Positions 21,393-42,740 are shown, counted from the stretch's first letter. The stretch is DNA of 64,000 nucleotides from Dehalococcoidia bacterium (GCA_042408205.1 JBHOQK010000025.1:1597-65596), one strand, 5' to 3'. Numbers and translations: made by a program. Notes: generated by a model not told the origin, from the letters alone.

Positions 21393-21896
21393 ATGCATCC
21401 CTTGGTTAAATTAGCTAAGGAAACCGTTGAAAACTATATCCGCAAGGGCAAGGTGGTAAAACCGGAAGAGCTCACTCCGGAGATGAAGGAAAGAGCTGGT
21501 GTTTTTGTCTGTATTAAAAAACATGGTGAATTACGGGGATGTATTGGGACTTTCGAACCTACCCAAGCTAATGTAGCCGAGGAAATTATAGCTAATGCTA
21601 TCAGTTCTGCTACTCGGGATCCTCGGTTCTCACCAATAACTGAGGCAGAGCTACCAGATTTAGAATACATTGTAGATATTCTTACCCGTCCTGAACCGGT
21701 GACGGATATAAGACAGCTTGATCCGAAGAAATATGGGATAATTGTTGAGAGTGGCTTCAGGCGTGGACTCCTTCTTCCTGACCTGGAAGGAGTTAATACG
21801 GTTGAGGAGCAAATAGCTATCTGTCGGGCTAAAGCCGGCATACTTCCTGAAGAACCAATAAAACTTTATCGTTTTCAGGTGAGGCGATATAAGTGA
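21393..21896 (+). CDS. AmmeMemoRadiSam system protein A (AMMECR1 domain)
   Basis: [18 protein letters not shown] and RDPRFSP motifs typical of AMMECR1. Confidence 0.85.
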
Positions 21897-22957
21897 AGTT
21901 ATTGGTTATTGGTTTAGGCAAGGGTGGCTCTCGAATTGCTGATGAATTTGCTCAGTTAAATAAAAAAGCTAAAGCAGAGCGGAATGTGACTATATTAACG
22001 GCAGCATATGCCGCTTGCTCTGATGGGGAGACCTTAGAGAAGCTAATTTCTAAAGAGACAGATCTTCTGGTTCGGTTATTAGTGCCGGAACCTTCATCGA
22101 CAAAACCTAATGAGACAGTCCAAGCCATTAGTGAACGAATTTTATCAGCTATACGGCGGAGTGAATATTTTGATACTGAAGCTTTCCTGGTTATTGCTGG
22201 TGCTGGTGGCAATTTTGGTTCTAAGATGGCGCCTCTAATCGGACAAAAATTAAAGGAGCGCTTTGTTGGTAAGCCTATTTATAGCCTTCTGGTTCTTCCC
22301 TTCGAATCAGAAGAATTAACTGAGACCGAAGCAATTTATCGGGCAGCGGTTTGTCTTAAATCTCTTTACCGGGTGACTGAGGCTGTTTTTTTGGTGGACA
22401 ATGAAAAGTTGCGGCGAGGCAAGGTATCGTGGGGGCAGCCACAAATTAATCAGGAGATAGTAACCTTCTTTTATGACCTTTTATGTGCCAGTGAGGTTTC
22501 TGGGTCTAAATACGCTGGGGTAAGAAACTTAAGTGTTGGCGATATAATCCAGACCCTTTATGGTTTTACTGCTATAGGCACTGGGAAAGTTGAACTTACT
22601 TCACGGTTTTCCTTCTGGAGGTTACCTACGTTTCGAGAGAAGGGAGAGGAGCAATTGAAGGCTCTGGAGGCAATTAATTTAGCCTTAAACAATTTGTCGA
22701 TTGATTGTGGACTAAAAGATTCGGGCAAAGCTTTATATCTTGTTTCAGCCCCGGCTAAAGAAATGAGCGTCGATATGGCTAAGGCTTTAGCTGGTCGTTT
22801 ACGAGAACTGACCGAGGTTGCTGAAATTAGGGGTGGTGATTTTGCTGGTAGCACCAATTCAGTTCAAGTTACCGTGGTTTTGTCCCAACTTGCCTTTGTA
22901 GAAAAAGTAAAAAATTATTATGACAAAGCTGTTGCCTTTTTGAAATTGAAGAGATAA
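21893..22957 (+). CDS. tubulin/FtsZ-superfamily paralog with degenerate nucleotide-binding loops
   Basis: GTG start inside GTGA, overlapping the AMMECR1 stop, with SD ggtgagg. The N-terminus [19 protein letters not shown] is clearly paralogous to 26195..27373. The T4 signature reads GAGGNFGS, the NTD motif reads CSDGE, and the Gly-rich T3 region is absent. Confidence 0.6.
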
Positions 22958-24273: not shown

Positions 24274-24354
24274 ACCCCCTCACCCCTAAATTCCTCTCTG
24301 TTAGAAACTTTTATCGCCCAGCCTAAACAAAATACCACCACGGACATTTTTAAA

Positions 24355-24383
24355 TAGACTTATTAGAACATTAGTGCTAATAT
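24355..24383 (+). promoter_or_regulatory. promoter of the terminase module (TAGACT-17-TAATAT) containing the conserved element TTAGAACATTAGTGCTAA (24363..24380)
   Basis: The spacer and -10 are almost identical to the promoter at 42449..42477. The ATG at 24390 lies 6 nt after the -10 box, with no SD. Confidence 0.5.
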
Positions 24384-24389
24384 ATAGCC

Positions 24390-24578
24390 ATGAAGCTTTT
24401 AAAGTTAGCCTTAGAAACCCAGCGCTATGACCTGGCAGCCCATGCCTTAGTCTTTGGCTTAATCAAAGCCAAGATTGACAATGGCAGACAGGGAAATGGT
24501 AAAGACCAGAGAAAGTCAAGACAAGCCAAAAAGACCATCATTCTACGAACAAGCCTTAAAGGAAGCCGAAAAGCTTGA
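24390..24578 (+). CDS. possible leaderless small ORF (62 aa), uncertain
   Basis: The ATG lies 6 nt downstream of the predicted -10. The first ~30 aa look helical and the remainder is a basic tail. It overlaps the next ORF in the +1 frame. Confidence 0.25.
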   Translation: MKLLKLALETQRYDLAAHALVFGLIKAKIDNGRQGNGKDQRKSRQAKKTIILRTSLKGSRKA

Positions 24579-24831
24579 ACTCCAAGAAGCTTTAGGCATT
24601 GATGGGATTGACCAGGAAATAGCGCTACTAAGGATAAAACTCAGGGAGCTTATTGTGTCTCAGCCCGATAGAATAGATTTACACCTTGAAGCTGCTTCTA
24701 CTATCGCCCGGTTAGTTAGAACCAGATACTTGATCACCAAGGAGCAAAAGAAGTCCCTAAAGGAAGCTATCACTAAAGTCATCACCGAAATTGCTGTTCC
24801 TTTAGGCGTTAAAGTGTTAATGAGGGAGTAA
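24481..24831 (+). CDS. hypothetical protein immediately upstream of the large terminase (small-terminase candidate)
   Basis: The position is the only evidence. Its stop is 1 nt from the terminase ATG, the protein is helical and charged, and I recognise no motif. Confidence 0.4.
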   Translation: MADREMVKTRESQDKPKRPSFYEQALKEAEKLELQEALGIDGIDQEIALLRIKLRELIVSQPDRIDLHLEAASTIARLVRTRYLITKEQKKSLKEAITKVITEIAVPLGVKVLMRE

Positions 24832-24832: not shown

Positions 24833-26212
24833 ATGAAGTTAAGACCATATCAATTAGAAGTGGCTAAAGCCGTAGTCGAAAGTGTCATCGAAAAGAAAGG
24901 CTTAACCTTCTCCGTAGAAATAGCCCGGCAGGGAGGGAAAAATGAACTCTCTGCCCATTTGGAGGTACTTCTTTTGACTCTGTTTATGGCTAAAGGTGGT
25001 AATGCCGTTAAATGTTCTCCTACCTTTAAGCCCCAGACTATTATCTCAATGATGCGACTTAAGGAAAGACTTGATGAGTTCGGCTTTACTGGTATTTATC
25101 GTCCTGAAATGGGCTATATCCTTCGCTTGGGGAATGCTTGCCAAATCTTTTTATCTGCCGATGAGCAAGCCTCCGTAGTCGGTCATACTGCCGATATCCT
25201 CTTAGAAATTGATGAAAGTCAAGATGTCAGTAAAGACAAATATACTAAGGATTTCCGACCCATGGCTTCAGCCTACAACACTACTACCGTCCATTACGGC
25301 ACGACCTGGGATGATACCACTCTCTTGGAAGAGATAAAGCAAATGAACTTAGAGCTGGAAAAGAAAGACGGCATCAAAAGACATTTTCGCTATGACTGGC
25401 AGGAAGTAGGTAAATATAACCCCGATTATTTAGCCTTTGTAGAAAGTGAACGGGAAAGGTTAGGCGAAAATCATCCCCTGTTTTTAACCCAATATGCTCT
25501 TAAACCCATAAGAGGCGGTGGTGGCTTTCTAACCAATCTTCAGATTGCCCAGATGTTAGGCAATCATCCCAGACAAAAATACCGAGAAGAAGGTAAAACT
25601 TATATTGCCGGCATTGACTTAGCTGGGCAGGAAGAACAATTAGATGAGTTAATTCTCACCAGACCCTCCCGGGATGCCACTGTTATCACCATTGCTGAAT
25701 TAGACCTTCGCCACCAATCCGAAGCTAACTTAGTTCAGCCAAGTCTAAAAATAGTCGAACACTATGCCTGGATTGGCAAAAAACACACCGAAGCCATAAA
25801 CACCATTATTGACTTAATGAGAAATACTTGGAATATCAGTAAAGTAGTAGTCGATGCCACGGGAATTGGTGAGCCCATCGCAGCCATCCTAAAACAAGCC
25901 CTGGGAAGTAAGGTCGTTCCCTTCGTCTTTACCCAGAAATCTAAATCAGAACTGGGCTTTGAACTTTTAGCCTTTATCAACTCAGGCAGGCTAAAAATCT
26001 ACCGGCAAGATGGCTCAGAAGATTATAAAGAACTAATGTATCAGCTTGAGAAAGCTAAGTCCGTTTACCGCCCTAACCAGACCCTAAACTTCTTTGTCGA
26101 CCCGCAAGACGGGCACGACGATTATCTAATGAGCTTAGCCCTCTTAGTTTTTGGGGCTAAAGAATGGCAACCCCGAGTAGCTCGGGGTTTGACTTCAAAT
26201 AAGGGTTGGTAA
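24833..26212 (+). CDS. phage terminase large subunit-like protein
   Basis: 459 aa. Walker A-like ARQGGKNE and Walker B-like ILLEIDESQ in the N-terminal half. RNase-H-like nuclease pattern in the C-terminal half (IAGIDLAG ... VVVDATGIG ... GHDDYLMSLAL). SD gagggag. Confidence 0.7.
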   Translation: MKLRPYQLEVAKAVVESVIEKKGLTFSVEIARQGGKNELSAHLEVLLLTLFMAKGGNAVKCSPTFKPQTIISMMRLKERLDEFGFTGIYRPEMGYILRLGNACQIFLSADEQASVVGHTADILLEIDESQDVSKDKYTKDFRPMASAYNTTTVHYGTTWDDTTLLEEIKQMNLELEKKDGIKRHFRYDWQEVGKYNPDYLAFVESERERLGENHPLFLTQYALKPIRGGGGFLTNLQIAQMLGNHPRQKYREEGKTYIAGIDLAGQEEQLDELILTRPSRDATVITIAELDLRHQSEANLVQPSLKIVEHYAWIGKKHTEAINTIIDLMRNTWNISKVVVDATGIGEPIAAILKQALGSKVVPFVFTQKSKSELGFELLAFINSGRLKIYRQDGSEDYKELMYQLEKAKSVYRPNQTLNFFVDPQDGHDDYLMSLALLVFGAKEWQPRVARGLTSNKGW

Positions 26213-27373
26213 TTCTTTAGCTGCTTCTTCCATATCCCGGAGGCGGCTGGTAGTTTCTTTTATCCTTTCTTTCTGACTGCGGGCAAAGGCAGAAGCCCGG
26301 TCGTAATAATCTCTTATTTTTTGGACAAAAGCCAGCTGGGAAAACATTACGGTAACATCAATAGCTCCTTTTTCCCAAGGGAAGTCACCGCTTCTAATAA
26401 CAGCATTTTCAGCTAATTCTCTAAGATAATCCCCCAAGCCTTTAGCCATATCCATATTCATGTGTCGAGCTGGAGCGGCTAACAGAAAGAGAGCTCGCCC
26501 CGCATCCGCTGGATTACAGGCTAAAGAAAGCTCACTTAAGGCAGCATCCATAGCTTGCATAGCCCGAAGAGTCTCTCGACTCTTTTCTCGGAAAGTGGCG
26601 GTGGGTCTTTCCCAAGGGAAGCGCCAGCGGGGGATTTCCGTTCTGCCCACGCCAATCACAGTCCAGCCATCAATAGACTGGATAATATCGCCGGCATCGA
26701 GGGTCTTTGCCCCCACATATTTGTATTTAGTTACTTCACCAGCACACATTATGTCATAAAAGGGTTCAACAATTTGCCTATTTATTCGCTGTAAGTTTGT
26801 GGCTAAAGAGGCATCTTTTCTTACATAGCGTTGATTATCAACTAAGAAAACACCATCGGCAACAGTGTGGATAGACTTAAGACAGGTAGCTGTATTATAG
26901 ACACTTCTTAATTCAGCCATTTCCTCGTGTTCAAAGGGGAGGACTATCAGGGCATAAACAGGCTTGCCAATATAACGCTCTTTAATCATTTGGGTAATAA
27001 CGGAGATGGCTCCAGAGCCAGTACCACCAGCCGCGCCGGCAATGAGGAGAAAAGCATGAGTTTCATAAAAGCGGGGAGCTGTCCGGATGGCATCAATAAC
27101 TTTGTCCCCATCTTCTTTAGCCAGCTCGGCTCCCATTTCATTTACTTTACCGACGCCGTGCCCCCAAGTCTTACGCCCGCCAATAAGAATGCGGTGGAGA
27201 TAATCAGAGCCAATATAAGTTAATCCTGTTAGGTCAGCTTGGTCAGTGTTTACGGCAAAAGCTCCGGTAACGATAGTTGTCTTTCGCTCACTCTGGGCTC
27301 TGGCATTAAGCCGGACAAATTCATCAGCAATCCGTGAACCACATTGTCCTAAACCAATAACCATTAATTTCAT
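26195..27373 (-). CDS. tubulin/FtsZ-superfamily GTPase (intact motifs)
   Basis: [19 protein letters not shown] (T1, GQCG as in tubulin/CetZ), AVNTDQADL (as FtsZ NTDAQAL), GHGVGKVNEMG (T3-like), IAGAAGGTGSG (T4 tubulin signature), TLDAGD (T7-like NxDxxD). SD agagagg. Confidence 0.7.
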   Translation of the reverse strand: MKLMVIGLGQCGSRIADEFVRLNARAQSERKTTIVTGAFAVNTDQADLTGLTYIGSDYLHRILIGGRKTWGHGVGKVNEMGAELAKEDGDKVIDAIRTAPRFYETHAFLLIAGAAGGTGSGAISVITQMIKERYIGKPVYALIVLPFEHEEMAELRSVYNTATCLKSIHTVADGVFLVDNQRYVRKDASLATNLQRINRQIVEPFYDIMCAGEVTKYKYVGAKTLDAGDIIQSIDGWTVIGVGRTEIPRWRFPWERPTATFREKSRETLRAMQAMDAALSELSLACNPADAGRALFLLAAPARHMNMDMAKGLGDYLRELAENAVIRSGDFPWEKGAIDVTVMFSQLAFVQKIRDYYDRASAFARSQKERIKETTSRLRDMEEAAKELPTLI

Positions 27374-27437: not shown

Positions 27438-29207
27438 CTATTCCTCCAATTTCATTTGTTTTAATACTTGGCGCAGGCGGAAAATTATAGCCCCTATTAG
27501 CAAAATAAATCCTATAACCGAGACGATAAATAGCCAGGTCTGTATCAAACCAACTCGGAAGGATTGGGGAGTTGTCCACGGGCTTTCATTTTGAGCCCCA
27601 TCTACAGCTTTTACTCTCCAATAATAAATACCGTAGCTTAAAGCTTCTTTACTGGTTAATTTATAAGTAGTTTCATTTAGGTTAACTTTGCGCAAACTAA
27701 GATTGGTAAAGTCTTCGGTCTTAGCTATTTCCAGATTATAACTGACGCCACTGGGGTCAGTAACGGGAGACCAGCTAAATTGGGGGGTAGCTTTACCTAA
27801 GAGATTGACCCGGGCTCCCGGGGATGGCAATAGGAGATTTGGGGTTGGTGGTGGGGTTGTTTCCATAGTTACTGAAGAAATAACAGAATTACCAGCAGCA
27901 TCTTTAACTTCTATTTTATGTCCTCCACCTTTGCTTTTGGGAGCTTTGAAGGTAATAGTGAAACTACCAGTAGTATCTGTTATTGCTGTAGCTACTTCCA
28001 GAGTGTCATAAATAATGGTTATAGGTGAATTCTTAGCAAAGCCACTGCCGACAATAGTAATCGTTGTGCCTACAGCTATGTTAGTTGGGTTAACTTTTAT
28101 GGCGGAAGTTACAGTAAAGATTAGGTCGGGGATTTCGGTATCTGGGGTAATAGTCCCGGAGGCATCAATAATATGACTACCTTTGGCTCCGGGTGGCACT
28201 TCCAAAGTAGTTATCCACGAACCCGTAGCATCGGCGGTAATATCGCTTTTAACCACATTTCCATCATAAAGGAGGCGGATATTCTTTTCATTTCCAGCAA
28301 AGCCGCTACCAGTAATGGTTATGGTACTCCATACTGGTGCTGAAGTTGGCTCAACCTTTATCCTGGGGGCAATAGTAAAAATAACATCAGGAACTTCGGT
28401 AGCTAAGGTAGTGCCCATAGCATCAATGATATGATCGCCTCGGATAGCCGTCGGCACTGAAAAGGTAGCTGTCCAGCTTCCTTTGTCATCGGCGGCAATA
28501 CCTGTTTTAACGGCAGTGCCAGCAAAGGTAACCCGGATATTCGTTTCATTGGCGTTAAAGCCGGTGCCAGTAACGGTGACTAAAGTACCGACCCCGCCTG
28601 AGGTAGGGGATAGGCTGATTTTTGGGGTGACGGTGAAGGTTCCAGCTGGCACCTCGGTTTCTAAAGTGATCGCGCTAAAGCCAACAACCTGATGGGCTCC
28701 CTTAGCACTTATCGGCACGGTAAAAGTCGTTGTCCAGGAGCCACTGCTATCGGCGGTGATGCCTGTTTTTTGCTCTATACCATCATAAGTTATTTTGATA
28801 TTAGGTTCGGTAGCTGTAAAGCCCCTGCCAGTGACTGTGACAGTAGTCCCCACTGGTCCACTGCTTGGGGTTAGGCTAATACTTGGGGTGACTCGGAAAG
28901 TTTTACTGTCAGTGTTTGGAGGGGAGGCATCATCAGTAACAGTAATAGTATGGTTACCCTTAACGCTGGGGGGGATAGTGAAAGCGGCAGTAATTGTTCC
29001 CCCTTGAACTAATCCCCGAGCCATTTCCACCCCATCATAAGTGACTCTGAAGTTAATACCGCTAAAACCACTCCCAGTGACGGCGACAGCAGTACCTACT
29101 GGACCTGAATCGGGAGTGAGGCTGATGCTGGCAGCAGCATTAACACCTCTCGGTATTAAAGTTATCCCGAGGAAAACTATCAAAAAAGCCCAAATTTTTA
29201 TTTTCAT
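27438..29207 (-). CDS. secreted IPT/TIG-like repeat protein with C-terminal Fn3-like YYWRV module and TM anchor
   Basis: Signal peptide. At least six ~85-aa repeats of the form ISLTP.SGPVGT.VTVTG.GF...I.VTYDG. The C-terminal module is FSWSPVTDPSGVSYNLEIA...YYWRVKAVDGAQNESPW followed by a hydrophobic helix. Confidence 0.7.
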   Translation of the reverse strand: MKIKIWAFLIVFLGITLIPRGVNAAASISLTPDSGPVGTAVAVTGSGFSGINFRVTYDGVEMARGLVQGGTITAAFTIPPSVKGNHTITVTDDASPPNTDSKTFRVTPSISLTPSSGPVGTTVTVTGRGFTATEPNIKITYDGIEQKTGITADSSGSWTTTFTVPISAKGAHQVVGFSAITLETEVPAGTFTVTPKISLSPTSGGVGTLVTVTGTGFNANETNIRVTFAGTAVKTGIAADDKGSWTATFSVPTAIRGDHIIDAMGTTLATEVPDVIFTIAPRIKVEPTSAPVWSTITITGSGFAGNEKNIRLLYDGNVVKSDITADATGSWITTLEVPPGAKGSHIIDASGTITPDTEIPDLIFTVTSAIKVNPTNIAVGTTITIVGSGFAKNSPITIIYDTLEVATAITDTTGSFTITFKAPKSKGGGHKIEVKDAAGNSVISSVTMETTPPPTPNLLLPSPGARVNLLGKATPQFSWSPVTDPSGVSYNLEIAKTEDFTNLSLRKVNLNETTYKLTSKEALSYGIYYWRVKAVDGAQNESPWTTPQSFRVGLIQTWLFIVSVIGFILLIGAIIFRLRQVLKQMKLEE

Positions 29208-29410
29208 ACTACTTTAAGCCGATAATACTTAGCCCTGCCTATTTGTCGTGAAACTTCAATGATATTCCTTTCCTCAAGTCTGGCTAAACTGGCCACAACC
29301 TTCTCCCGACTCTTAATCCCCAAACCCCTCATTATCTCCGGAATCGCATAATCCCGCCTCAAGTCAGCTTTCATTAGATTGATGATTTCTTTTTCTATTT
29401 CTTTTTCCAT
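29204..29410 (-). CDS. small winged-helix DNA-binding protein
   Basis: 68 aa from the internal ATG at 29410; the longer track start lies upstream of the predicted -10. wHTH-like LARLEERNIIEV. The stop overlaps the next start (ATGA). Confidence 0.5.
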   Translation of the reverse strand: MEKEIEKEIINLMKADLRRDYAIPEIMRGLGIKSREKVVASLARLEERNIIEVSRQIGRAKYYRLKVV

Positions 29411-29427
29411 TTCAAATCTTTTGTGAA

Positions 29428-29456
29428 ATAGTAGCACAAATAAAAAGAAATGTCAA
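29428..29456 (-). promoter_or_regulatory. promoter for the wHTH / IPT-repeat operon (TTGACA-17-TACTAT)
   Basis: Read on the minus strand, just downstream of the rho stop. Confidence 0.55.
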
Positions 29457-33259: not shown

Positions 33260-35833
33260 TCATTTTATTTTCCGGCTGAGGAGTGACAGAGCCACTATAG
33301 TCAAACCTATGGTGGCAGCAGTTCCAGGGCGGCCACAGCCTTTTTTAGGTGGTGGGGGTTGGGGTGGTGGCGGTGGCTGCTGTACTGAGGGAGGAGGTGG
33401 CGGTGTCTTTGGGGTTTGGGGGTCAAAGTAATGATATAAAACATTAGTGGCAATAGTTTTCCCTTCTTTAACGATAATCGTTGCGTCTATTGCCCAGAGG
33501 TAAACGCCGTCGCTGGCTTTGAGAGCTTTAGGGAGACGGCAGAATTGGGGTGGCAGGGGTGGTAAGTAAGGTTCTGGTGGTGGTGGTTTATATTTTGGAA
33601 TACCTGAAGTGAGACTATCTAAGGTGGGGGTTGGGCTGGCGGGAGCCAGCAGGCGAAGGGCACCGCTGCTGGGGGGGAGAAATTCCGGATAGGGTGGTGA
33701 AGGTGGCGGCTGGAACCAATAAAATGAGGCATAAACAACTCCCCAGTGTTGAACTAAACCGCTGAGGCGCTGATAGCTTTCAACTCGCTTGATCTGAGTC
33801 CACTCTTTGCTGGTGTCTATAACAAAGCGGTAAATACCTTCTCCAGGAGTATCGGAGGCAGCATAAATAGTCTTGTTAGTGCCAAAATCTATATCAGCAA
33901 CTACTTGTATATTACCTCTGCCGCCGCCAAGGGGGAGAGTAAGAAAGAAAGTAGCTCCGCCATCAGGGGAATAGCTCACCTGACCATTTTCGGCGCCACC
34001 AACCAAGACATAATTACCCGGGGCAGTAGTAATCATATTAGCCTTCCCAATACGACTATCTACTGGTCGGCTCCAGGTCTTGCCGCCATCGGGGCTCTTG
34101 ACCACTTGCCCGGCGCTATTGACTATATAAAGAATGTTTGGGCTGGCAATTGCCATATCTATAGTTGGTAGGGGGGCTATTATTTTTTCAAAGGTTTGTC
34201 CCATATCTTTTGAGGTATAGATAGTCGTGGTGCCACTAACGGCAGTATTAGTCTCCGCCAGATAAAAAGTTTTACCCTCAGGGTCATCGGGGATAATTCT
34301 AAGGAGGGCGGTATTAGTTTGGGTAGCGAAACATAATATTCTTTCCCAGCTTTTTCCTTGATTAACCGTTCGCCACAGGCTATCAAAGCCGGGGGAGGTA
34401 GTTACCAGATAAACTGTTTTAGAATTTAAGGTGGGGGCGACATCTTGGAAGGAGGAGGTGCTGGTATTAATTTCAGTATCAATAAGGCTTATTTGGTTAA
34501 AAGAGACACCTCCATCCAGACTCAGGGATAGGGCTGATTCATCCTTTGCGGTCATGATGGGGCTGGAAGTAGCGGTATAAACCGCTTTTCCATCGGGAGA
34601 GACTCGGACTAAAGCATTGCCCGGACCGGTAGGGGGTTTTAGGGACAGTTGCCAAGTGGGGGGTGAGGCTTGGGGATTAGTCGTCCGTCTGATTTGGACT
34701 GAAGCTGTTTCCGGGCTGCCTTTGACTTCCCCCGCCCAGAGGTTACCGGAAGCAACGGTGCCGAAATAAGTTAGACTGGCTATAGGAATATCAGCGCCGG
34801 CATTAGCATTAAGTCGGGTGACGGTAGTATTGTCTAAGCGGTAGACATCGGGATTACCGGTAGCCCCGCCGGCTATTTGGGGCTGGCTGTTCCAGGCGAT
34901 ATAAAGGCGTCGTTTAGCTATTTCTGCCCCGGAGTAGTCTTGGGGCAAAACCATAGTAGAGCTCAGGATTCTACCGCTTTGTCCGGCTTTTGGTCCCGGG
35001 TGGGCGGTGCCTTCGGCTGGTGAATCAGTGCCGGGAGTTTCTATCCTTACTGGATAGCCAGCAAAGAGCTTAGGGTCATTCCAGGTGAGGGGCAAAATTC
35101 GGGTATTTAATATATTAAGGAAAGTATCGCCGTCATTATTTCCTGGCTGGTCAGTAGTTGATGCCACGGCTAAGATAGTGAAGTCAAGGGGGTAGTTAGG
35201 CGAAATAGCTACTGCGGTGACATCACCGCCGGAGAAGCCTTTTACTTGGTAAGGGTCGGTGAGGTCTTCCCATTTTCCCGGGGTGGGGAAAGTGAAGCGA
35301 GCTACAATCCCATAGCTATAGCCATCATTGAGAGAAGCGCTGCCGACAATAATGTCTCTAACGGCGCCAATAGCTGGCGAAATAGCTATGTCCTTAATTA
35401 AAGTCGGGGGCAAGTTGGGGATAGCTCCAGTTTTGATGAAAGTCCTCCCCCCATCAGTAGAAATATGGACTTTAGTGCCATCTTCAACTATAGCCAAAAA
35501 GAAAGGGTCATCAGGGGCTAAGGCTAAACCAGTAAGATTGCCCAAGATACCCTGATGCCTTAGCTCGGAAGTTAGTTCTATCCAGGTAATGCCAGCATTT
35601 GTGGATTTAAATAATCGAAAATTAACGCTGTCTAAGGCAAAGAAAGTAATGCCATCCTTACCGATGGCTAAATGGGTTATTTCGGAAGGGCTCAGGATAA
35701 CCAAACCGTCACTACTGGGAGTGGGGAAAATAGACCAGCTCCCTGAGGTAGCAACCGCCGGACTTATGGTTATGGGCAAGACCAAGAGAATAAGACTAAG
35801 CCTCAAAATTAAATTTCTCCTTTGTTTTTTCAC
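33260..35833 (-). CDS. large secreted Asp-box (BNR) beta-propeller protein with Pro-rich stalk and C-terminal anchor
   Basis: 857 aa, GTG start with SD aggagg, signal peptide. Repeated Asp-boxes (STDGGRTF, STNAGITW, SLDGGVSF, SPDGGKTW, SPDGGATF). PPPPP runs, then GCGRPGTAATIGLTIVALSLLSRKIK. Paralog of 38764..41991. Confidence 0.65.
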   Translation of the reverse strand: MKKQRRNLILRLSLILLVLPITISPAVATSGSWSIFPTPSSDGLVILSPSEITHLAIGKDGITFFALDSVNFRLFKSTNAGITWIELTSELRHQGILGNLTGLALAPDDPFFLAIVEDGTKVHISTDGGRTFIKTGAIPNLPPTLIKDIAISPAIGAVRDIIVGSASLNDGYSYGIVARFTFPTPGKWEDLTDPYQVKGFSGGDVTAVAISPNYPLDFTILAVASTTDQPGNNDGDTFLNILNTRILPLTWNDPKLFAGYPVRIETPGTDSPAEGTAHPGPKAGQSGRILSSTMVLPQDYSGAEIAKRRLYIAWNSQPQIAGGATGNPDVYRLDNTTVTRLNANAGADIPIASLTYFGTVASGNLWAGEVKGSPETASVQIRRTTNPQASPPTWQLSLKPPTGPGNALVRVSPDGKAVYTATSSPIMTAKDESALSLSLDGGVSFNQISLIDTEINTSTSSFQDVAPTLNSKTVYLVTTSPGFDSLWRTVNQGKSWERILCFATQTNTALLRIIPDDPEGKTFYLAETNTAVSGTTTIYTSKDMGQTFEKIIAPLPTIDMAIASPNILYIVNSAGQVVKSPDGGKTWSRPVDSRIGKANMITTAPGNYVLVGGAENGQVSYSPDGGATFFLTLPLGGGRGNIQVVADIDFGTNKTIYAASDTPGEGIYRFVIDTSKEWTQIKRVESYQRLSGLVQHWGVVYASFYWFQPPPSPPYPEFLPPSSGALRLLAPASPTPTLDSLTSGIPKYKPPPPEPYLPPLPPQFCRLPKALKASDGVYLWAIDATIIVKEGKTIATNVLYHYFDPQTPKTPPPPPSVQQPPPPPQPPPPKKGCGRPGTAATIGLTIVALSLLSRKIK

Positions 35834-35924
35834 ATTACCTCCTGAGATTATATTTCCTTGCTACCGTGGGCAATTTTTGCTTTAACTAAGGAGATTTTTC
35901 GGGGCGATAGCGAGGTTTTTCTTA

Positions 35925-35954
35925 ATTGTAAAAGGGGTAAGGCAAGGCTGTCAA
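35925..35954 (-). promoter_or_regulatory. promoter of the 857-aa surface protein gene (TTGACA-18-TACAAT), second copy of the cassette
   Basis: Read on the minus strand. It shares -35, most of the spacer, -10 and the downstream aaaaacctcgc with the pyrG promoter. Confidence 0.55.
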
Positions 35955-35979
35955 GTTTAAAGGAGACTAATACCCTCTT

Positions 35980-36267
35980 TTACTGCCTCTTTAACCAAGC
36001 CAATTCTCTTTTTCTTAATTTCAAATTCTTTTTCTGTATAGCATAAATGTCTAAAGGTAGCCCCACTTCCCGGTATTTATAAAGCCGAGAGGCTCGTTCC
36101 GGAAAGGGGATATCGCCAAAGTCATCTGAGACCAAAATTAAGTCAAAATCACTCTCTTTAAGGTAATCACCCCTAGCTCGGGAGCCAAATAAAATAGCCC
36201 TTTTTAAATGATAATCTTGAGCTATTTTACTGACGAAGCGCCTTACTTTATTAATTGTTTCGTCCAT
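35980..36267 (-). CDS. nucleotidyltransferase-domain protein (MNT-type)
   Basis: ILFGSRARGDY...DFDLILV (GS-x-RG ... D-x-D). I prefer the internal ATG at 36267. Confidence 0.7.
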   Translation of the reverse strand: MDETINKVRRFVSKIAQDYHLKRAILFGSRARGDYLKESDFDLILVSDDFGDIPFPERASRLYKYREVGLPLDIYAIQKKNLKLRKRELAWLKRQ

Positions 36268-36382
36268 GTAAGGATCCCCTGGGCATATTCCAGGTGCAAT
36301 ACCGTTCATGCTCCAAAAGAAGCTCAGCCGTCTTTAAGTCCTCTTCAGCCTGGAGGAGTAAGTCTCGGACTTCCTGTCTCAT
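36251..36382 (-). pseudogene. HEPN N-terminal remnant (43 codons)
   Basis: MRQEVRDLLLQAEEDLKTAELLLEHERY resembles the N-termini of the two intact HEPN ORFs in this window (WLEQAYEDLKWAKDL...). The similarity then stops, and the ORF runs into the NTase start. Confidence 0.4.
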
Positions 36383-36384
36383 AG

Positions 36385-36795
36385 TTAGTTAGGGGCAATT
36401 TTTTCCTTAACTAAGGCACAGATTTCCTCAGCTATGGCAATTGCCTCTGTAGCTACTTTCTGGTTATACACCCGTGCCGGAATACTATCGGGTAAGGCAT
36501 TGGGATAGCGGGTGGGGACATAATAGCCATCCAGAATTGCCCATTCTTTGGCTTTTTGCCCAAAAACCTGGTCATAGACACTAGCCAGGGAGCACAACCT
36601 TTCCACGGAATGTCCCAAGACAATTTCTTCACCGCAGGCATAAAGAAAAGCTTTTAACGCCTTCTCCCCTATTTGTTGAGCTAAAAAGCAAACAATATGA
36701 TAACCGCCTCTTGAGGCTAAGTCTTTTGCCCATTTTAAGTCCTCATAGGCTTGTTCCAACCACCTTTTGCCGTCTTCAATAGGACTTTTTCTCAT
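36385..36795 (-). CDS. HEPN domain protein
   Basis: 136 aa. N-terminal WLEQAYEDLKWA helix, AQQIGEKALKAFLY, and the RYP motif region. It overlaps the upstream NTase gene by 20 nt. Confidence 0.75.
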   Translation of the reverse strand: MRKSPIEDGKRWLEQAYEDLKWAKDLASRGGYHIVCFLAQQIGEKALKAFLYACGEEIVLGHSVERLCSLASVYDQVFGQKAKEWAILDGYYVPTRYPNALPDSIPARVYNQKVATEAIAIAEEICALVKEKIAPN

Positions 36796-37135
36796 AAAGA
36801 ACCACTTCCTGAGCTAAAACTTGCTTTAAAAAGCCCCTCTGTTTCATTTGGTCAAACTCTTCAACGGTATAACATATAATATCAGCAGCCACGGGCAAGC
36901 TGAGAGAAGCATAAATTTCCCTGAGCCTATCGATAAAACTTTTATCACTATCCATTACAATCAGGATATCTAAGTCAGTAAATAGGTCAGCCCTCCCTTG
37001 AGCATAAGAGCCGAAGAGGCTGACTCTTTTGATATCACTTCTGTGGCAGAGCTCCCTTTTAACTTTCTCTACGGAAGCTTTAAGAAGCTCCACATATTCC
37101 TTTCGCTTTTGGGCTATTTTTTGGTTGATATCCAT
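36776..37135 (-). CDS. nucleotidyltransferase-domain protein (MNT-type)
   Basis: VSLFGSYAQGRADLFTDLDILIV motif. The start overlaps the upstream stop (TAATG). Confidence 0.75.
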   Translation of the reverse strand: MDINQKIAQKRKEYVELLKASVEKVKRELCHRSDIKRVSLFGSYAQGRADLFTDLDILIVMDSDKSFIDRLREIYASLSLPVAADIICYTVEEFDQMKQRGFLKQVLAQEVVLYEKKSY

Positions 37136-38457
37136 TAGTAATAAAACATGCTTTTCAGCCAGCGGAAAAAGCCAACTATGAGGCGGATGATAAGCCAGAG
37201 GCTGATAATGGCGGCTATAACGCCAGCAAGAACAAGGCTCCAGAGGGGGAAGAAGCCGACTTGGAAGGGGTGGGGGGCAATGACCCAGGGGCTTTCATTG
37301 CCAGCTCCATCCACGGCTTTTACTCTCCAATAATATCTTCCCGGAGGCATTTTCTCCTTCGTTTTATATTCAGGCTCCGTCAGTCCTGACCGCCTTAGAT
37401 AAGGGGGGAAGAAATTTAAGTCTTTGGCTACCTCCAAAGTATAACTAACGCCACTGGGGTCAGTGACTTTTGTCCAAGTGAAGGTAACCTGACTTCCTCC
37501 ATACCAATTAATACGGCTAGTGGGGGAAATGGGCATTGGGGCTGGTGGCGGTGTTCTTTCCAAGAATAAGGTCATATCTAAAGTAGCGGTATTGCCGGCA
37601 GTATCGGTAGCCGTAATAGTTGGTTTTAAAGTGGTGCCCATTCCTAAGGTAAAGGTAGCGGTAAAGGTGCCTAAGGAGTTAGTCTTTAGGGGGGAGGGGT
37701 CGGTAGTTATGGTAGTACCGTTATATTTTACGGTTACAGTGCGCTCCGCGCCAAAGCCTTTACCGGTGATAGTAATTGGTTTGCCTATTTCTGCCGGGGA
37801 GGGAGTGATGATAATCACTGGCTTGACTTCCAGTTTAAGAGGTGGCACCTCTTCCTCTGGGGTAGAAATACTGGAAGCGCGCAAGATATGATCCCCGGCA
37901 GTAGCTTCGGGTATGGTAACCTGGGTAGTAAAGCTGCCTAAGCTATTAACCAAAATATTGTCTTTAATAACCTGGCCATCCAGAGTTACTTTAGCTGTAT
38001 CATTAGCCACAAAACCCTTGCCCGTTACGGTAACTGTTCCCCCGGGTATAACGGTTTTTGGCTCTAAGAAAAGGCTTGGGGTAATGTAAAAAGCTGGAGC
38101 CACAATAGCGTCCCGAGCTCCGAGAGGGACGATGTATAGGGGATGGCGACCGTAATGGTCTTCAGGGATAGTGAAAGTGACGGAGAACTTTAAGGGATGG
38201 TCTAAAGGAGCTCCAGTTTTCCCCTCCACTAATTTTGGTCCGATCGTAGAGTTCCAGTGGACGCTAAAGGGGCTATCAGGGATATCAATACTCCCCTTAA
38301 GGTTAACCTGAGTTCCCACCGGACCTTGGGCTGGGGTTAAGGTGATGTTCTGGGCTAATGATGGTGCTGCAAAGAGTAAGAAGCTAACTATCAAAGCTAA
38401 GAAAATTACTCCTCTCAGGCTCACCATTTTAGATCTTACTAACCCCAGATTCATCAT
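37135..38457 (-). CDS. secreted IPT/TIG-like repeat protein with Fn3-like YYWRV module and TM anchor (paralog of 27438..29207)
   Basis: Signal peptide and repeats (LTPAQGPVGTQV..., EPKTVIPGGTVTVTGKGF...). The C-terminus is FTWTKVTDPSGVSYTLEVA...YYWRVKAVDGAGNESPW plus a hydrophobic helix. Confidence 0.65.
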   Translation of the reverse strand: MMNLGLVRSKMVSLRGVIFLALIVSFLLFAAPSLAQNITLTPAQGPVGTQVNLKGSIDIPDSPFSVHWNSTIGPKLVEGKTGAPLDHPLKFSVTFTIPEDHYGRHPLYIVPLGARDAIVAPAFYITPSLFLEPKTVIPGGTVTVTGKGFVANDTAKVTLDGQVIKDNILVNSLGSFTTQVTIPEATAGDHILRASSISTPEEEVPPLKLEVKPVIIITPSPAEIGKPITITGKGFGAERTVTVKYNGTTITTDPSPLKTNSLGTFTATFTLGMGTTLKPTITATDTAGNTATLDMTLFLERTPPPAPMPISPTSRINWYGGSQVTFTWTKVTDPSGVSYTLEVAKDLNFFPPYLRRSGLTEPEYKTKEKMPPGRYYWRVKAVDGAGNESPWVIAPHPFQVGFFPLWSLVLAGVIAAIISLWLIIRLIVGFFRWLKSMFYY

Positions 38458-38763: not shown

Positions 38764-41700
38764 TTATGCCCGGCGACCAGTCCTGACGATGAGGATCAAG
38801 GTGACGATCACCAGGATAGCCCCGATGGCAATCACTGTCCACACCCAGGCCGGGGTTGGTGGTGGTGGTGCTGGTGGTTCCGGCGGTGGTGGTGGTGGTA
38901 GTTTCACCACCGTGAAGTTAGCCACTGGGCTGGGGTTGCCCACCGGGTCAATAGCCTGAACCTGCCAGAAGTAAGTGCCAGGGGCAAGGTCAGTGCCTAC
39001 CTGATAAGCCGGTGTGGTCACCTCTTTAGGCGTGCCATCAACAGTCTTGGTCAGGGCTGGGTCAGTGGCAATGACAATCTTATACTTCTTAGCCACAGTC
39101 CCGGGCTCCGGTGACCAGGAGAAGGCTGGCATAGCTTTCTCATCGTGCTTATAGGTCAAGGTAGCCCCATTTGCTGGAGATAGGATCAGAGGACCAAGGT
39201 GAGGCGCTCCTACCGGGACACCAGCCTCCACCATGAAGCTCCTCACCGCTGACCACGGGCTCAGGATAAGGTCACCAGTAACTTCGTCCCACACTCTGAC
39301 TCTCCAGTAATAGGTCTTGCCAGCCTCAAGGTTAAGTGTGATAGCACCGGTAGGACCGACAACCGCAGCCGGTTTCGCGACATCAGGCGGAGAGTAGTCA
39401 GTTTTATCCAGGAGGACCTGGGTAAATTCGGGATCCTTTGCTATCTGTATATGGTAACGTGTAGCCAGGTCAATGAAAGCCCAAGTTAAGGTAACATTGG
39501 CAGCTCTGCCTGAGACTGGGTCAATGCCAATCGTAGCTTTGTCTGCAGGTGTAGTCAAGTCAGGTCCAGCCTTGGATAAGGCATCCAGGTAGGCAACAAG
39601 TGTATCATCGCCGTTCAATGTCCAAACCAGGACACCATCAGATACCTTTATTGACTGGGGTTGGAGACTGAACATGCCACTAACGGTAGCTATATCCATC
39701 TGCGTCCACTCTGGTCCCGGTGGAATAGGAGTTGTTGGGTTAAGGGAACGATCAGCCCAACGGTTTGTTGAGTCACCAGCATAGAGGGTACCACAGTGAG
39801 TAGCCAAACCGGTTATGGTCCGATTATCGCCAGAGATGAGCGTTGACCAGACAGTGCTAACGCCGATAATCCAGCGCCCAATACCCTGACCAGCAGTAGC
39901 AGAACCAGCATAGATAATCTTGTTGGTATCGAAGTCCTTATCAGCAATTACCTCCACATTACCTGTACCCCAGGCAAGGGGGATGAGGGTGAAGCTGGCA
40001 CCACCATCAGTGGAATAGCTAACACGACCACTAGTGCCACCAACAAAGACGTTGCCCTTCTTATACACACTTATCATATTGGCAGCGCCAACCATGCTGT
40101 CCACAGGAATTGACCAAGTCCAACCAGCGTCGGTTGACTTAGCCACAAAGCCAGAAGTGCCATCGACACCATAAATAGTCAGTTTGTCTTCAACGGCTAA
40201 GTCCCTCAGGCTAGCGATATTGCTGGCTCGGGATCCCCAGGTTTCACCTTTATTGGTGGTAACACGAATCTTGTTTGAGTCGGTAGCCTCTATGTAATAA
40301 ACAACAGAGCCATCTGGGGTGTCAGGAGATGGTCTGATTTTGGCTAACCCATTGCCTGCCCAGGCTCGTGTCTCAACTCTTTCCCACCTTGTCCCGTGAG
40401 GGATAGTAGTGCTGCGGAATATACTGTCATAGGAAGCGGTACTCTGATTAGCAATAAAGACTACTGAGCCATCAGCGGATACACCGACATCAGTCAACTT
40501 TGAGTCGCCTGTGGCAATGTCGGTATCTATAAGCCCTCTTTGGTTAAAGGAAACACCATCATTAGTTGAAGCTGAGAAGGCTGTCTCGTCATTGGGCTCA
40601 GCCGCAACCAGGAAATTAGCTGTGTGTTTCTCAGGAACGCCAGTACTGGTAACGGCAAAAGCTATCTTGCCATCAGGGCTCCACCGGACAAAGGCATTAC
40701 CCGTTGGAGTTGTGCCTATAGTTTTGCCTCCGGTGGGTGGCTTAGCTGAGTCTAGCCAAGTGGGGAAACGAGCCTGTGGATCCATGGTACGTTTCACTTG
40801 GGTAAAGGGTGCTGCCCAACCCACTTGTCCAGCTAAAAGCTTACCTGTATCGCGCGTACCATGATAAGCCAGGCTGGTTATAGATAAATCAGCTCCAGCA
40901 TTAATGTCAAGCCGGAAAACAGTAACATTGTCAACGCGGTAAACATCGTCAGTAGCTGCTGCGTCTCCACCGCTATCAATGGTGAGCCACACCCGGCGCA
41001 TAGCTGCCTCAGCGAAGTTGGCGTCTGAAGGTATAGCCATGTCCGAAGTTCGCCACTGACCCTCCTTAGCTCCAACCGTGCCAGGTGGGTACTGCAGATT
41101 TACTGGCCACAGAGTATAAATAGCAGCCCCATTCCAGGCGGGCACAGCCCCTAAGTTGGCCGCCTGTAACCAGGCACTGGCAGCATCGTGAGTGATAGCC
41201 AATAGGGTTCTATCAAGTGGGAACGCGGGGGAGAACCGGACTGAGCTTACATCTGAATGTGTCCAACCGGCGATAGTAGGAGGAGGACCAGGGGTATAGC
41301 CCGGTATTTTCCACGAAGTGGCAACAGCCCCGACCTCAAGAATAGCCGCAAAACCATGCCCATTATCGTCACTAGTAAACCACTTGCCGTCAGTACCTTT
41401 ATCAATATCGTCAGGATCATATACACCCACGGCTACAGTGCGTATAGTGCCCAGACCACCAGGTATAGACTTGGCTATGTCAAGAGCCCTTGGGGCAATG
41501 CGAGCGTTAGCAGTAAGACCACCCCAAAGGTTTGGCAATGGACCGGTGTAGCCCCAGTTATGCCCGCCATCGTTGGAAATGACCACATACTGGTTAGCTA
41601 TTCCAGTGGCACTCTCCCCGGCAATAGCCACAAAATTGGGGTCATCAGGAGCTACGGCTATTGCCCAGAACTGAGTAAATGTTGCTGGTAAACCGGTAGC

Positions 41701-41991
41701 TGCCTGTACCCGAGCTGTTAAGTCAAGCCAAGTATAGCCACCATCGGAAGACTTCCAAAAGCGCGGGGCAGCTGCGCGACCGATGGCATAAATGATTTTG
41801 TCTGTAGCTACGCCGATCTGATAAATCTCTGTACCTGGAGCAATAACATTGTGAGTGGTACTCGGCGTTGTTATCACCCGCCACCTCATTGGCGTTGGTA
41901 CCTCAGCTTGAGCTGTTGGCGCCAACGGCACTAAGCTGACTACCAGTGTCAGGATGGCTAAACCAGCCAAGATTTTGGGAATTTTACTCAA
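38764..41991 (-). CDS. giant secreted Asp-box beta-propeller protein with two Fn3-like YYWRV modules, Pro-rich stalk and TM anchor
   Basis: 1075 aa, TTG start with SD aaaggagg, signal peptide. Asp-boxes (SSDGGYTW, SNDGGHNW, TTNKGETW, STDAGWTW, STDGGASF). Modules ending YYWRVRVWD and YFWQVQAID. The C-terminus is PPPPPPEPPAPPPPTPAWVW plus a helix plus RTGRRA. Confidence 0.65.
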   Translation of the reverse strand: MSKIPKILAGLAILTLVVSLVPLAPTAQAEVPTPMRWRVITTPSTTHNVIAPGTEIYQIGVATDKIIYAIGRAAAPRFWKSSDGGYTWLDLTARVQAATGLPATFTQFWAIAVAPDDPNFVAIAGESATGIANQYVVISNDGGHNWGYTGPLPNLWGGLTANARIAPRALDIAKSIPGGLGTIRTVAVGVYDPDDIDKGTDGKWFTSDDNGHGFAAILEVGAVATSWKIPGYTPGPPPTIAGWTHSDVSSVRFSPAFPLDRTLLAITHDAASAWLQAANLGAVPAWNGAAIYTLWPVNLQYPPGTVGAKEGQWRTSDMAIPSDANFAEAAMRRVWLTIDSGGDAAATDDVYRVDNVTVFRLDINAGADLSITSLAYHGTRDTGKLLAGQVGWAAPFTQVKRTMDPQARFPTWLDSAKPPTGGKTIGTTPTGNAFVRWSPDGKIAFAVTSTGVPEKHTANFLVAAEPNDETAFSASTNDGVSFNQRGLIDTDIATGDSKLTDVGVSADGSVVFIANQSTASYDSIFRSTTIPHGTRWERVETRAWAGNGLAKIRPSPDTPDGSVVYYIEATDSNKIRVTTNKGETWGSRASNIASLRDLAVEDKLTIYGVDGTSGFVAKSTDAGWTWSIPVDSMVGAANMISVYKKGNVFVGGTSGRVSYSTDGGASFTLIPLAWGTGNVEVIADKDFDTNKIIYAGSATAGQGIGRWIIGVSTVWSTLISGDNRTITGLATHCGTLYAGDSTNRWADRSLNPTTPIPPGPEWTQMDIATVSGMFSLQPQSIKVSDGVLVWTLNGDDTLVAYLDALSKAGPDLTTPADKATIGIDPVSGRAANVTLTWAFIDLATRYHIQIAKDPEFTQVLLDKTDYSPPDVAKPAAVVGPTGAITLNLEAGKTYYWRVRVWDEVTGDLILSPWSAVRSFMVEAGVPVGAPHLGPLILSPANGATLTYKHDEKAMPAFSWSPEPGTVAKKYKIVIATDPALTKTVDGTPKEVTTPAYQVGTDLAPGTYFWQVQAIDPVGNPSPVANFTVVKLPPPPPPEPPAPPPPTPAWVWTVIAIGAILVIVTLILIVRTGRRA

Positions 41992-42324: not shown

Positions 42325-42337
42325 CTTGTCAAGACCC
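42325..42337. repeat. 13-nt direct repeat copy 1 (CTTGTCAAGACCC, contains the palindrome CTTGWCAAG)
   Basis: Exact copy of 42380..42392, with starts 55 nt apart, in the divergent intergenic region. Confidence 0.85.
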
Positions 42338-42379: not shown

Positions 42380-42392
42380 CTTGTCAAGACCC
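42380..42392. repeat. 13-nt direct repeat copy 2 (CTTGTCAAGACCC)
   Basis: Exact copy of 42325..42337. Confidence 0.85.
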
Positions 42393-42448
42393 CCTTTTAT
42401 AACGAGGTACTAAGATCCCACAACCAATAAGCCCCGGTCATTTTTCCC

Positions 42449-42477
42449 TTGCTTAATTAGAACATAAGTGCTAAATT
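42449..42477 (+). promoter_or_regulatory. promoter of the portal/capsid module (TTGCTT-17-TAAATT) containing the conserved element TTAGAACATAAGTGCTAA (42457..42474)
   Basis: 17 of 18 positions of the element are identical to 24363..24380. The ATG at 42486 lies 8 nt after the -10 box. Confidence 0.5.
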
Positions 42478-42485: not shown

Positions 42486-42740
42486 ATGATAGAGTTAGAG
42501 GAATGGGAATATCGGGATGAGGGGTGTGAGGTATTTCATAGTTGTCTTAACTGTCCGTTACCGAGGTGTGTGGAGGAGGAGCCGCGGGGGCGGCAGAAGT
42601 TACGGCAGAGGTTGAGGGATGAGGTAATGAGGGATTTAAGGCGGCAGGGGAAGACGACGGCGGAAATTGCGGCTATTTTTGGGGTTAGTCCCAGGACAGT
42701 AAGACGGGCATTACATCGGAGCCGACATGACCAACTTTGA
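42486..42740 (+). CDS. small Cys-cluster + helix-turn-helix protein (regulator or small-terminase-like)
   Basis: C-x5-C-x2-C-x4-C cluster (CEVFHSCLNCPLPRC), then a basic region and the HTH TTAEIAAIFGVSPRTVRRAL. I prefer the ATG at 42486 to the GTG at 42468. Confidence 0.5.
   Translation: MIELEEWEYRDEGCEVFHSCLNCPLPRCVEEEPRGRQKLRQRLRDEVMRDLRRQGKTTAEIAAIFGVSPRTVRRALHRSRHDQL

Follow-up and report, generated by a model that had tools for sequence, protein, structure and literature searches.

Host LexA is an established regulator of phages and of genes for killer particles: the phage CTXphi is repressed by LexA of its host, and the promoters of colicin operons carry LexA boxes. In Bacillus thuringiensis, the phage GIL01 is repressed directly by host LexA together with the protein gp7 (PMC4551915). 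Because host LexA acts on such promoters, DNA damage induces these systems without a CI-type repressor. Gene transfer agents (GTAs) form another class of phage-derived systems, among which RcGTA possesses a multi-locus 'genome' (PMC5026251), and LexA has been linked to GTA production in Rhodobacter and Dinoroseobacter (PMC6473078). Here, we analyse a 64,000-nt stretch of a Dehalococcoidia genome (GCA_042408205.1 JBHOQK010000025.1:1597-65596; the window), which contains a phage-derived element in two separate modules. The packaging module is composed of orf62, orf118 and the gene for the large terminase subunit (TerL), whereas the portal module contains portal, head and tail-like genes led by the gene for a four-cysteine helix-turn-helix (Cys4-HTH) protein. 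The promoters of both modules contain a near-identical palindrome, which most likely represents a LexA/SOS box.

The element shares with GIL01, CTXphi and the colicins the predicted placement of host LexA on phage or killer-particle promoters. It differs from them in that the Dehalococcoidia boxes lie on structural and packaging operons, with two to three copies per element, and in that the window element has no adjoining integrase, replication or lysogeny genes and is split by housekeeping genes (rho, pyrG). Similar to RcGTA and its relatives, it is a gene set of phage origin for head, packaging and tail, about 10-12 kb in size, which occupies a conserved chromosomal locus in many species. 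Its genes are likewise dispersed, not confined to one locus, and, as the LexA box suggests, controlled by regulators of the host. In contrast to RcGTA, this control would be direct, with a LexA box at each promoter, instead of indirect via CckA, CtrA and GafA. Moreover, the Dehalococcoidia system belongs to another phylum, its parts resemble the podovirus SU10 (Pfam) and not an HK97-type siphovirus, its prophage-like relatives persist, many of them with an integrase, and its particles are hypothetical. Full-text searches of the literature did not bring up any gene transfer agent, or comparable element, described for Dehalococcoidia.

Two copies of the palindrome overlap the predicted promoter cores of both modules

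The initial annotation had described an 18-nt inverted repeat in both module promoters, and the two copies are located as claimed: TTAGAACATTAGTGCTAA at 24363-24380 and TTAGAACATAAGTGCTAA at 42457-42474, both on the plus strand and identical at 17 of 18 positions. A third copy is indeed absent, as only these two sites match in the window when up to three mismatches are allowed, and a scan with the degenerate form TTAGNAC-N4-GTNCTAA (up to one mismatch) finds the same two sites. The chance expectation for such matches is a mean of 0.04 over 100 shuffles, none of which reached two. The dyad cores, TAGAAC-ATTA-GTGCTA (24364-24379) and TAGAAC-ATAA-GTGCTA (42458-42473), possess an A/T-rich centre and are each one base short of a perfect GAAC-N4-GTTC dyad.

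Both copies are embedded in predicted promoters on the plus strand, whose geometry agrees with the earlier description. At site 1, the predicted -35 box TAGACT (24355-24360) is weak, matching TTGACA at four of six positions, and TTGACA-like hexamers are found at the equivalent position in relatives. It is followed after 17 nt by the predicted -10 box TAATAT (24378-24383), which shares the final 3 nt of the palindrome and is preceded by TGC, corresponding to an extended -10 (TGn), and then by the ATG at 24390. At site 2, the likewise weak predicted -35 box TTGCTT (42449-42454), whose position is kept in relatives, is separated by 17 nt from the predicted -10 box TAAATT (42472-42477), which overlaps the end of the palindrome and precedes the ATG at 42486. 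No Shine-Dalgarno (SD) sequence stands before either ATG. The palindrome covers the spacer and the first 2-3 nt of the predicted -10 box at both window sites and in relatives. A generic sigma-70 scan of the window scored neither module promoter, because the -35 boxes are weak. The likeness of the two promoters extends further 5' than had been noted, with CGGACATTTTT (24341-24351) pairing with CGGTCATTTTT (42435-42445) in a pairwise alignment.

As a single strand, the palindrome folds weakly (-3.3 and -2.1 kcal/mol, z-scores -1.7 and -0.5), which fits a protein-binding site and not a structural hairpin. On account of this weak fold and of zero Rfam matches across the window, a structural hairpin or RNA element was rejected. 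The CIRCE operator of HrcA, with the consensus TTAGCACTC-N9-GAGTGCTAA, is composed of 9-nt arms separated by a 9-nt gap and is located upstream of chaperone genes. The 7-nt arms of the palindrome (TTAG.AC and GTGCTAA) resemble CIRCE but are only 4 nt apart, and the motif neighbours DNA-damage genes, not groES or dnaK; the assignment to CIRCE was rejected.

The palindrome as a probable Gram-positive-type LexA box

The Cheo box GAACn4GTTC and the Firmicutes LexA consensus TACGAACATATGTTCGTA (PMC2248561), as well as the Bacillus subtilis box CGAACN4GTTCG (PMC3091678), have the same dyad as the palindrome, which can thus be read as an SOS box. An exact 17-nt sequence, TTAGAACATNAGTGCTAA, was searched against one genome per species (596 Gb) and matched 30 loci, 24 of which are metagenome-assembled genomes (MAGs) of Chloroflexota from several classes. 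Uniform-composition arithmetic predicts about 70 chance matches, so the signal lies in the taxonomic concentration and the context, not in the total count. Most of the Chloroflexota matches sit between a TTGAC-like -35 box and a TAAnAT -10 box. The genes beside the matches include dinB (Pfam IMS 1e-44, IMS_C 2e-27), a Nudix-recA operon with a product 61% identical to Escherichia coli RecA, a divergent RecA-like gene of 231 aa, and a glyoxalase/bleomycin-resistance gene. Two of the loci are homologues of the window modules, one carrying orf62/orf118 (L001) and the other the Cys4-HTH gene (L007).

A second scan with the perfectly palindromic WTAGAACATATGTTCTAW gave at least 120 matches. The phyla Chloroflexota, Actinobacteria and Firmicutes use the Gram-positive-type LexA box, and it is in these three that the matches listed are concentrated (about 36 in Chloroflexota). 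Among the same matches, lexA adjoins the motif in two Clostridia and three deltaproteobacterial loci, and a Y-family polymerase gene lies beside it in 10 Chloroflexota loci, five of them confirmed by Pfam, including the Dehalococcoidia locus L178. In addition, a 92-aa LexA_DNA_bind protein adjoins the motif in a Phototrophicaceae genome (Chloroflexota), and further Chloroflexota loci contain one RecA-like gene (Pfam RecA 1e-27) or FtsK-like genes. An SOS context is therefore found in the same phylum, with the motif at dinB, imuB-like, recA and imuA-like genes and beside a LexA_DNA_bind gene in L114. As the motif stands at dinB, imuB-like, recA, imuA-like and lexA genes in loci without element genes, its binder would be LexA or a LexA-type protein. 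The Cys4-HTH protein and the LuxR-type response regulator, which the initial annotation had named as candidate binders, do not fit this distribution.

Compared with the Gram-positive LexA operator (Cheo/DinR box, consensus CGAACRNRYGTTYC), the element's palindrome shows the same dyad, 4-nt spacer, A/T-rich centre and overlap with the promoter core, as well as the same occurrence at recA, dinB, imuB-like and imuA-like genes (Chloroflexota) and at lexA (other phyla). It differs in its flanks, which are TA and not C/G, and in its proximal half, which is mostly GTGC and doubles as an extended -10; binding of LexA to it is predicted. LexA of Dehalococcoides ethenogenes reportedly binds GAAC-N4-GTTC (Fernandez de Henestrosa et al. 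2002). Overall, the palindrome is most likely a Gram-positive-type (Cheo-box) LexA/SOS box and not an operator private to the element. The concern that it could be a generic repeat applies only insofar as the motif recurs in other contexts, where it appears as the operator of a regulon.

We consider it likely that both promoters are repressed by LexA bound to the box (about -26 to -9) and that this repression is lifted at both when DNA is damaged. In every case, the last TA of the box is also the beginning of the -10, which places the box in the classic position of a repressor. With the spacer and the first bases of the -10 of a sigma-70-type promoter occupied by a LexA dimer, RNA polymerase would be blocked. 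LexA, stimulated by RecA after DNA damage, would cleave itself and thereby release the two promoters simultaneously. The separated halves would then be co-induced: the packaging module (orf62-orf118-TerL) on one side and the portal, head and tail genes led by the Cys4-HTH gene on the other. This arrangement supports the original proposal of a shared operator for a dimeric DNA-binding protein, which overlaps the promoter core before both phage-like modules in the manner of a repressor site.

Several points weigh against the assignment to LexA. Neither lexA nor recA is present in the 64-kb window, and tblastn and phmmer searches of all fetched loci with E. coli and B. subtilis LexA found LexA only in Clostridia and deltaproteobacteria, the Chloroflexota loci yielding only DNA-binding-domain-only proteins. 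The regulon evidence comes entirely from other genomes, through searches with a fixed motif sequence. Moreover, the promoter-proximal half-site is GTGC and not GTTC in 57 of 74 element promoters, so its conservation may partly reflect the extended -10 (TGn), and the affinity for LexA may be reduced.

The DNA-binding-domain-only proteins raise the alternative that the binder is a LexA-like paralogue, with regulation independent of classical RecA-stimulated cleavage. Chloroflexota possess a family of proteins of about 92 aa (117 clusters; Chloroflexi where named) that contain LexA_DNA_bind but no peptidase domain and would thus not be cleavable. One of their genes is located directly beside an SOS box in L114 (7684-7905, minus strand), and a homologue search with its product retrieved only LexA_DNA_bind proteins of about 92 aa. 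A 77-aa example lies beside the exact motif in L017 (2794-3027, plus strand), and a winged-helix protein of 77 aa is also encoded in the window (29204-29437), although its match to LexA_DNA_bind stays below the threshold (E = 1e-3). However, the small LexA-domain proteins found belong to Anaerolineae-type genomes and not to Dehalococcoidia element loci, and canonical LexA accounts for the regulon content without added assumptions, which makes a paralogue improbable. The 77-aa protein of the window was rejected as a mini-LexA, since it is not similar to the one in L017; of the 80 TerL loci described below, only one contains a homologue.

A second motif at about -47 accompanies the box

To describe the promoter architecture beyond the window, 74 element promoters were aligned on the box. 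The distal (left) half-site is GAAC in 69 of them, the proximal (right) half-site is GTTC in 9 and GTAC in 5 beside the 57 with GTGC, and the commonest centre is ATAT. The consensus of the box in relatives is TAGAACATATGT(G/T)CTA. Their -10 box, TAnnAT or TAnnnT, begins at the last TA of the box, so that GTGC supplies the TGn of an extended -10, and their -35 box is located 9-10 nt before the box, mostly with three or four of six matches to TTGACA. Further upstream, a second motif, G(T/C)GACAAA(A/C/T), which had escaped the initial annotation, begins exactly 21 nt before the box at 55 sites and 22 nt before it at 19. On the plus strand of the window, it is found as GACA with a T-tract at site 1 (GGACATTTTT, 24343-24351) and as GTCA with a T-tract at site 2 (GGTCATTTTT, 42437-42445), starting 21 nt before the box core in both cases, at about -47. 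The version of L031, the locus of the closest TerL relative, is likewise GGACATTTTT or GGTCATTTTT.

The second motif is closely associated with the element. GACA at -21/-22 accompanies 74 of about 87 boxes in element loci, compared with 3 of 96 orientation-instances at other Chloroflexota SOS boxes, and of 43 GACAAAA-N4-8-TTG sites counted in 1.13 Mb, 26 are joined to a box. Collection-wide, the composite GACAAAA-N14/15-TAGAAC-N4-GTGCTA is present at at least 120 loci, where about 9 chance matches are expected by arithmetic, and nearly all of those listed are titled Dehalococcoidia or Chloroflexota. Among the matches listed, the gene following the composite promoter encodes the Cys4-HTH protein in 62 of 118 sampled cases and is orf62 or orf118 in 33. 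The window promoters share one global cis element, the predicted SOS box, and one largely promoter-specific element at about -47.

The zinc-finger protein Ogr of phage P2 is a late-gene activator that binds just upstream of a weak -35 box. The same position is bound by the phage late-gene activator RinA (PMC3152322) and by the RcGTA activator GafA (PMC6363796). By analogy, the -47 GACA/A-tract lies beside a weak -35 box, and the element encodes a small putative DNA-binding Cys4 protein; the Cys4-HTH protein differs in having no sequence or structural relationship to these activators. The motif at about -47 may be the site of a positive factor that compensates for the weak -35 boxes, with the Cys4-HTH protein as the obvious candidate, a suggestion that we regard as tentative. 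If this protein binds the motif, it would exert positive feedback from the portal-module promoter. The earlier idea of an activator or dedicated factor, which is not supported for the palindrome, may thus apply to the upstream motif.

The composite promoter also occurs at noncoding loci. In the MAG CAWCLJ01, the assembly of GACAAAA, -35 box and LexA box is present at least 10 times with no downstream open reading frame (ORF) of 50 aa or more, followed by a conserved GAGAAACGAAG stretch and 48-nt tandem repeats (L002, L003, L008, L024, L293, L295, L297, L319, L346, L351, L352). A second conserved noncoding group stands behind the composite promoter in other MAGs (also L286, L288, L370, L386). 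None of these noncoding loci matches an Rfam family, and they may represent SOS-driven noncoding RNAs or repeat arrays. Their presence implies that the factor acting at -47 need not be encoded by the element.

The initial annotation had also considered the Cys4-HTH protein as a regulator acting on the palindrome, which would make it an autoregulatory repressor or activator. Box copy 2 is followed first by the HTH gene, more than half of the sampled composite promoters precede this gene, and it co-occurs with box promoters while being absent between TerL and portal in the mostly box-less prophage-like relatives. This co-occurrence is equally explained if the protein binds GACA at -47. In addition, the palindrome stands at dinB, imuB-like, recA and lexA promoters without element genes, also in phyla without the element, and the AlphaFold model of the protein gives only generic HTH matches. 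Autoregulation through the palindrome is therefore slightly less credible still than a LexA-like paralogue.

Another explanation treats the dyad as incidental, the conserved sequence being a special promoter class (spacer and extended -10) read by a dedicated sigma factor. In line with this, the right arm provides TGn and the start of the -10, the orientation of the two half-sites is nearly fixed in element promoters, and the HTH protein has sigma region-4-like Pfam matches. However, TAGAAC is almost invariant, although spacer bases are not normally conserved for sigma recognition. Moreover, perfectly symmetric copies are found at SOS genes in both orientations and with varied -35/-10 offsets (for example L178 and L127), and some element promoters carry the flipped form GCAC...GTTC. 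We regard a dedicated sigma factor as very unlikely.

Least probable is binding of the palindrome by the neighbouring LuxR-type response regulator (50281-50961). In favour of it, the regulator gene lies immediately next to the end of the portal module, one Anaerolineae MAG has the exact motif in front of a LuxR-type regulator, and GerE-type proteins recur beside SOS boxes. Against it, homologues near the element are few, of low identity and at varying positions, these few cases fit the regulator as a target of the box and not its binder, and the regulon content argues for LexA. The same scarcity, low identity and variable position make the regulator a weak candidate for a part of the element.

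Boxes are kept in chromosomal forms and largely missing from prophage-like forms

TerL relatives are present in at least 204 species-representative genomes, the best 80 of which were examined. These 80 show 62-83% identity and are all Chloroflexota MAGs, mostly of Dehalococcoidia; the closest relative (L031) has a CetZ-like neighbour that is 91% identical to that of the window, which assigns the window to a Dehalococcoidia. With a box defined as up to one mismatch in 12 core positions within 1 kb 5' of TerL, 57 of 69 loci contain a box, compared with 21 of 843 control 1-kb windows from the same loci, many of these 21 being promoters of other modules. The Cys4-HTH gene has a box and a GACA motif within 200 nt upstream in 16 of 24 loci; in the eight HTH loci without a box, it directly follows TerL in four and is located elsewhere in the cluster in four.

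Where TerL is flanked by host genes, more than 40 species share the order rarA-TerL-cetZ-like-surface protein, and the splitting of the element also occurs in L068/L007, L037 and L062. In the contiguous relatives L100, L104 and L108, the promoter is found two to three times, before orf62/TerL, HTH-portal and scaffold-capsid. The multi-promoter design is therefore older than the split in the window, which explains why both halves carry the same element.

A contiguous arrangement, orf62-orf118-TerL-portal-scaffold-capsid-adaptor-...-p686 over about 10-12 kb, is also found in 53 IMG/VR contigs. Box presence depends strongly on the arrangement (Fisher's exact p = 3e-12, all evaluable loci). Where TerL is flanked by host cetZ-like or surface-protein genes, the chromosomal and often split form, the box is present in 43 loci and absent in 2, whereas it is present in 4 and absent in 22 where TerL is directly followed by portal, the prophage-like form that often has an integrase. 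The Cys4-HTH gene lies between TerL and portal only in box-bearing forms, and no integrase was detected in the host-flanked relatives, one locus excepted. TerL identity correlates with flanking-gene identity in host-flanked loci (Spearman 0.61-0.73), yet the prophage-type and chromosomal TerL forms interleave in a neighbour-joining tree, so that the tree does not demonstrate a single clean domestication.

Among the prophage-like relatives, genes for an integrase, HNH endonuclease, HTH protein and methyltransferase lie upstream on the IMG/VR contig L260. In place of a box, this contig has TTGACATAA direct repeats before orf62. Three direct repeats (ACTTGACATAA, ACTTGACATAA and ACTTTACATAA) are located about 110 nt 5' of orf62, before a leaderless-like ATG, in the prophage-type L231, L232, L255 and L260. 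These repeats suggest a different, phage-encoded late control in such relatives.

The operator itself is ordinary and belongs to the known LexA-box family, and direct LexA control of phage or killer-particle genes is already known. What is unusual is the placement of the boxes on structural and packaging operons of an integrase-less, multi-locus and widely conserved element, their coupling to a second motif that ordinary SOS promoters almost never have, and the contrast with prophage-like relatives that lack them, many of these with an integrase. The boxes on every module, largely missing from the prophage-like relatives, point to a domesticated particle system under host DNA-damage control, as judged from genome sequences. 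It is conceivable, though still short of probable, that Dehalococcoidia carry a class-wide, integrase-less and often multi-locus GTA-like particle system derived from temperate phages, whose operons have been rewired to promoters with the -47 motif and the LexA box, so that DNA damage directly triggers particles. If so, its source would be a temperate phage family, many members of which still have an integrase, and phage late control would have been replaced by host control. Genetic manipulation of Dehalococcoidia is difficult. For the exchange of genomic islands that takes place among them, a particle that packages DNA and is inducible through the SOS response would provide a concrete vehicle.

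Gene content of the two modules

The packaging module lies on the plus strand. Its first gene, orf62 (24390-24578), is small and conserved, with homologues in 56 loci, and its ATG is located 6 nt past the -10 box. It is followed by orf118 (24475-24831), a small conserved protein in the position of a small terminase directly before TerL, with homologues in 75 loci; Pfam and PHROG searches assigned it to no family. Read in different frames, the two genes overlap by about 50-100 nt. Relatives conserve both, orf62 only over about its first 48 residues. TerL (24833-26212) matches Pfam Terminase_6C (5e-7) and the PHROG terminase large subunit.

The portal module, also on the plus strand, starts with the gene of the 84-aa Cys4-HTH protein (42486-42740), whose ATG lies 8 nt past the -10 box. 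The protein matches Pfam HTH_23 (4e-9) and Sigma70_r4_2 (3e-8), and its four cysteines are invariant across 34 homologues. Its AlphaFold model (pLDDT 73) has a C-terminal three-helix HTH and a poorly predicted Cys4 part; in Foldseek, the model matched nothing but generic HTHs of LuxR/GerE, transposase and sigma-R4-like type, each with E > 0.1. It is followed by an SPP1-type portal protein (42727-44109; Pfam SPP1_portal 9e-26, phrog_64 2e-38), a probable scaffold protein judged from its position and coiled-coil character (44122-44559), the major capsid protein (44580-45521; phrog_212 4e-61, Pfam SU10_MCP and Phage_capsid) and a possible SU10-like head-tail adaptor (45594-46205; Pfam SU10_adaptor 1e-5, slightly below the family cut-off). 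Six more co-oriented genes (46198-50264; 78, 115, 94, 221, 148 and 686 aa), whose order is kept in IMG/VR relatives, complete the module, and the closing 686-aa protein has a weak tail-protein match (phrog_1887 2e-4).

The two modules hold only packaging, head, connector and tail-like genes in addition to the small HTH protein, and no integrase, replication or lysogeny genes adjoin the element in the window. They are separated by a gap of 18 kb containing rho, fsa (transaldolase-like), pyrG and surface-protein genes; given these housekeeping genes, the modules do not constitute one prophage. The cluster at 33260-38457 was considered as a third module and rejected, as it shows only Ig/TIG-domain likeness to surface proteins.

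Neighbouring genes and leaderless geometry

Tubulin-family paralogues flank the packaging module at 21893-22957 (plus strand) and 26195-27373 (minus strand). CetZ is otherwise a cell-shape protein of archaea. The protein at 26195-27373 matches Pfam Tubulin and CetZ_C, and in about 40 Dehalococcoidia species its gene is the one that directly follows TerL. Beside both modules, the minus strand encodes large proteins, secreted and anchored in the membrane, that contain IPT/TIG and Ig-like domains and are kept in synteny (27438-29207, 37135-38457 and 38764-41991). One of them, of 589 aa, comes after TerL/cetZ, and the gene of another, of 1075 aa, is divergent from the HTH-portal promoter, as is also the case in L007 and L062. 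A 13-nt direct repeat, CTTGTCAAGACCC, is present twice in this region (42325-42337 and 42380-42392; 0.08 expected by chance), and its minus-strand reading, GGGTCTTGACAAG, gives two -35-like boxes upstream of the 1075-aa surface-protein gene.

The start codons of both modules lie in a geometry that is locally unusual, since an SD-like motif is found before 35 of 53 long ORFs in the window and a -10-like hexamer 4-10 nt before the start in only 3 of 53. The box and the orf62 start are separated in relatives by distances that fall into two classes, 4-15 nt (about 28 of 53) and 23-59 nt (the remainder), and several of the longer leaders carry an SD-like GAGG; several HTH genes keep a distance of 10-14 nt. 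Leaderless transcripts at both modules are plausible for this lineage and not universal to the element. The predicted promoter of the LuxR-type response regulator (50961-51010, minus strand) has a similar layout, TTGACC-17 nt-TACACT-7 nt-ATG, with neither an SD sequence nor a LexA box.

Candidate SOS genes in Anaerolineales

For Chloroflexota, the analysis yields a usable LexA motif and candidate new SOS genes. Three kinds of genes recur beside perfect SOS boxes in Anaerolineales, encoding a 240-250-aa multi-pass membrane protein without a Pfam family (L141, L149, L195, L199), a 134-142-aa GerE/LuxR-type protein (L137, L150) and an FtsK-like ATPase (L113, L132). These genes could be new members of the SOS regulon, and the membrane protein could be a division inhibitor.

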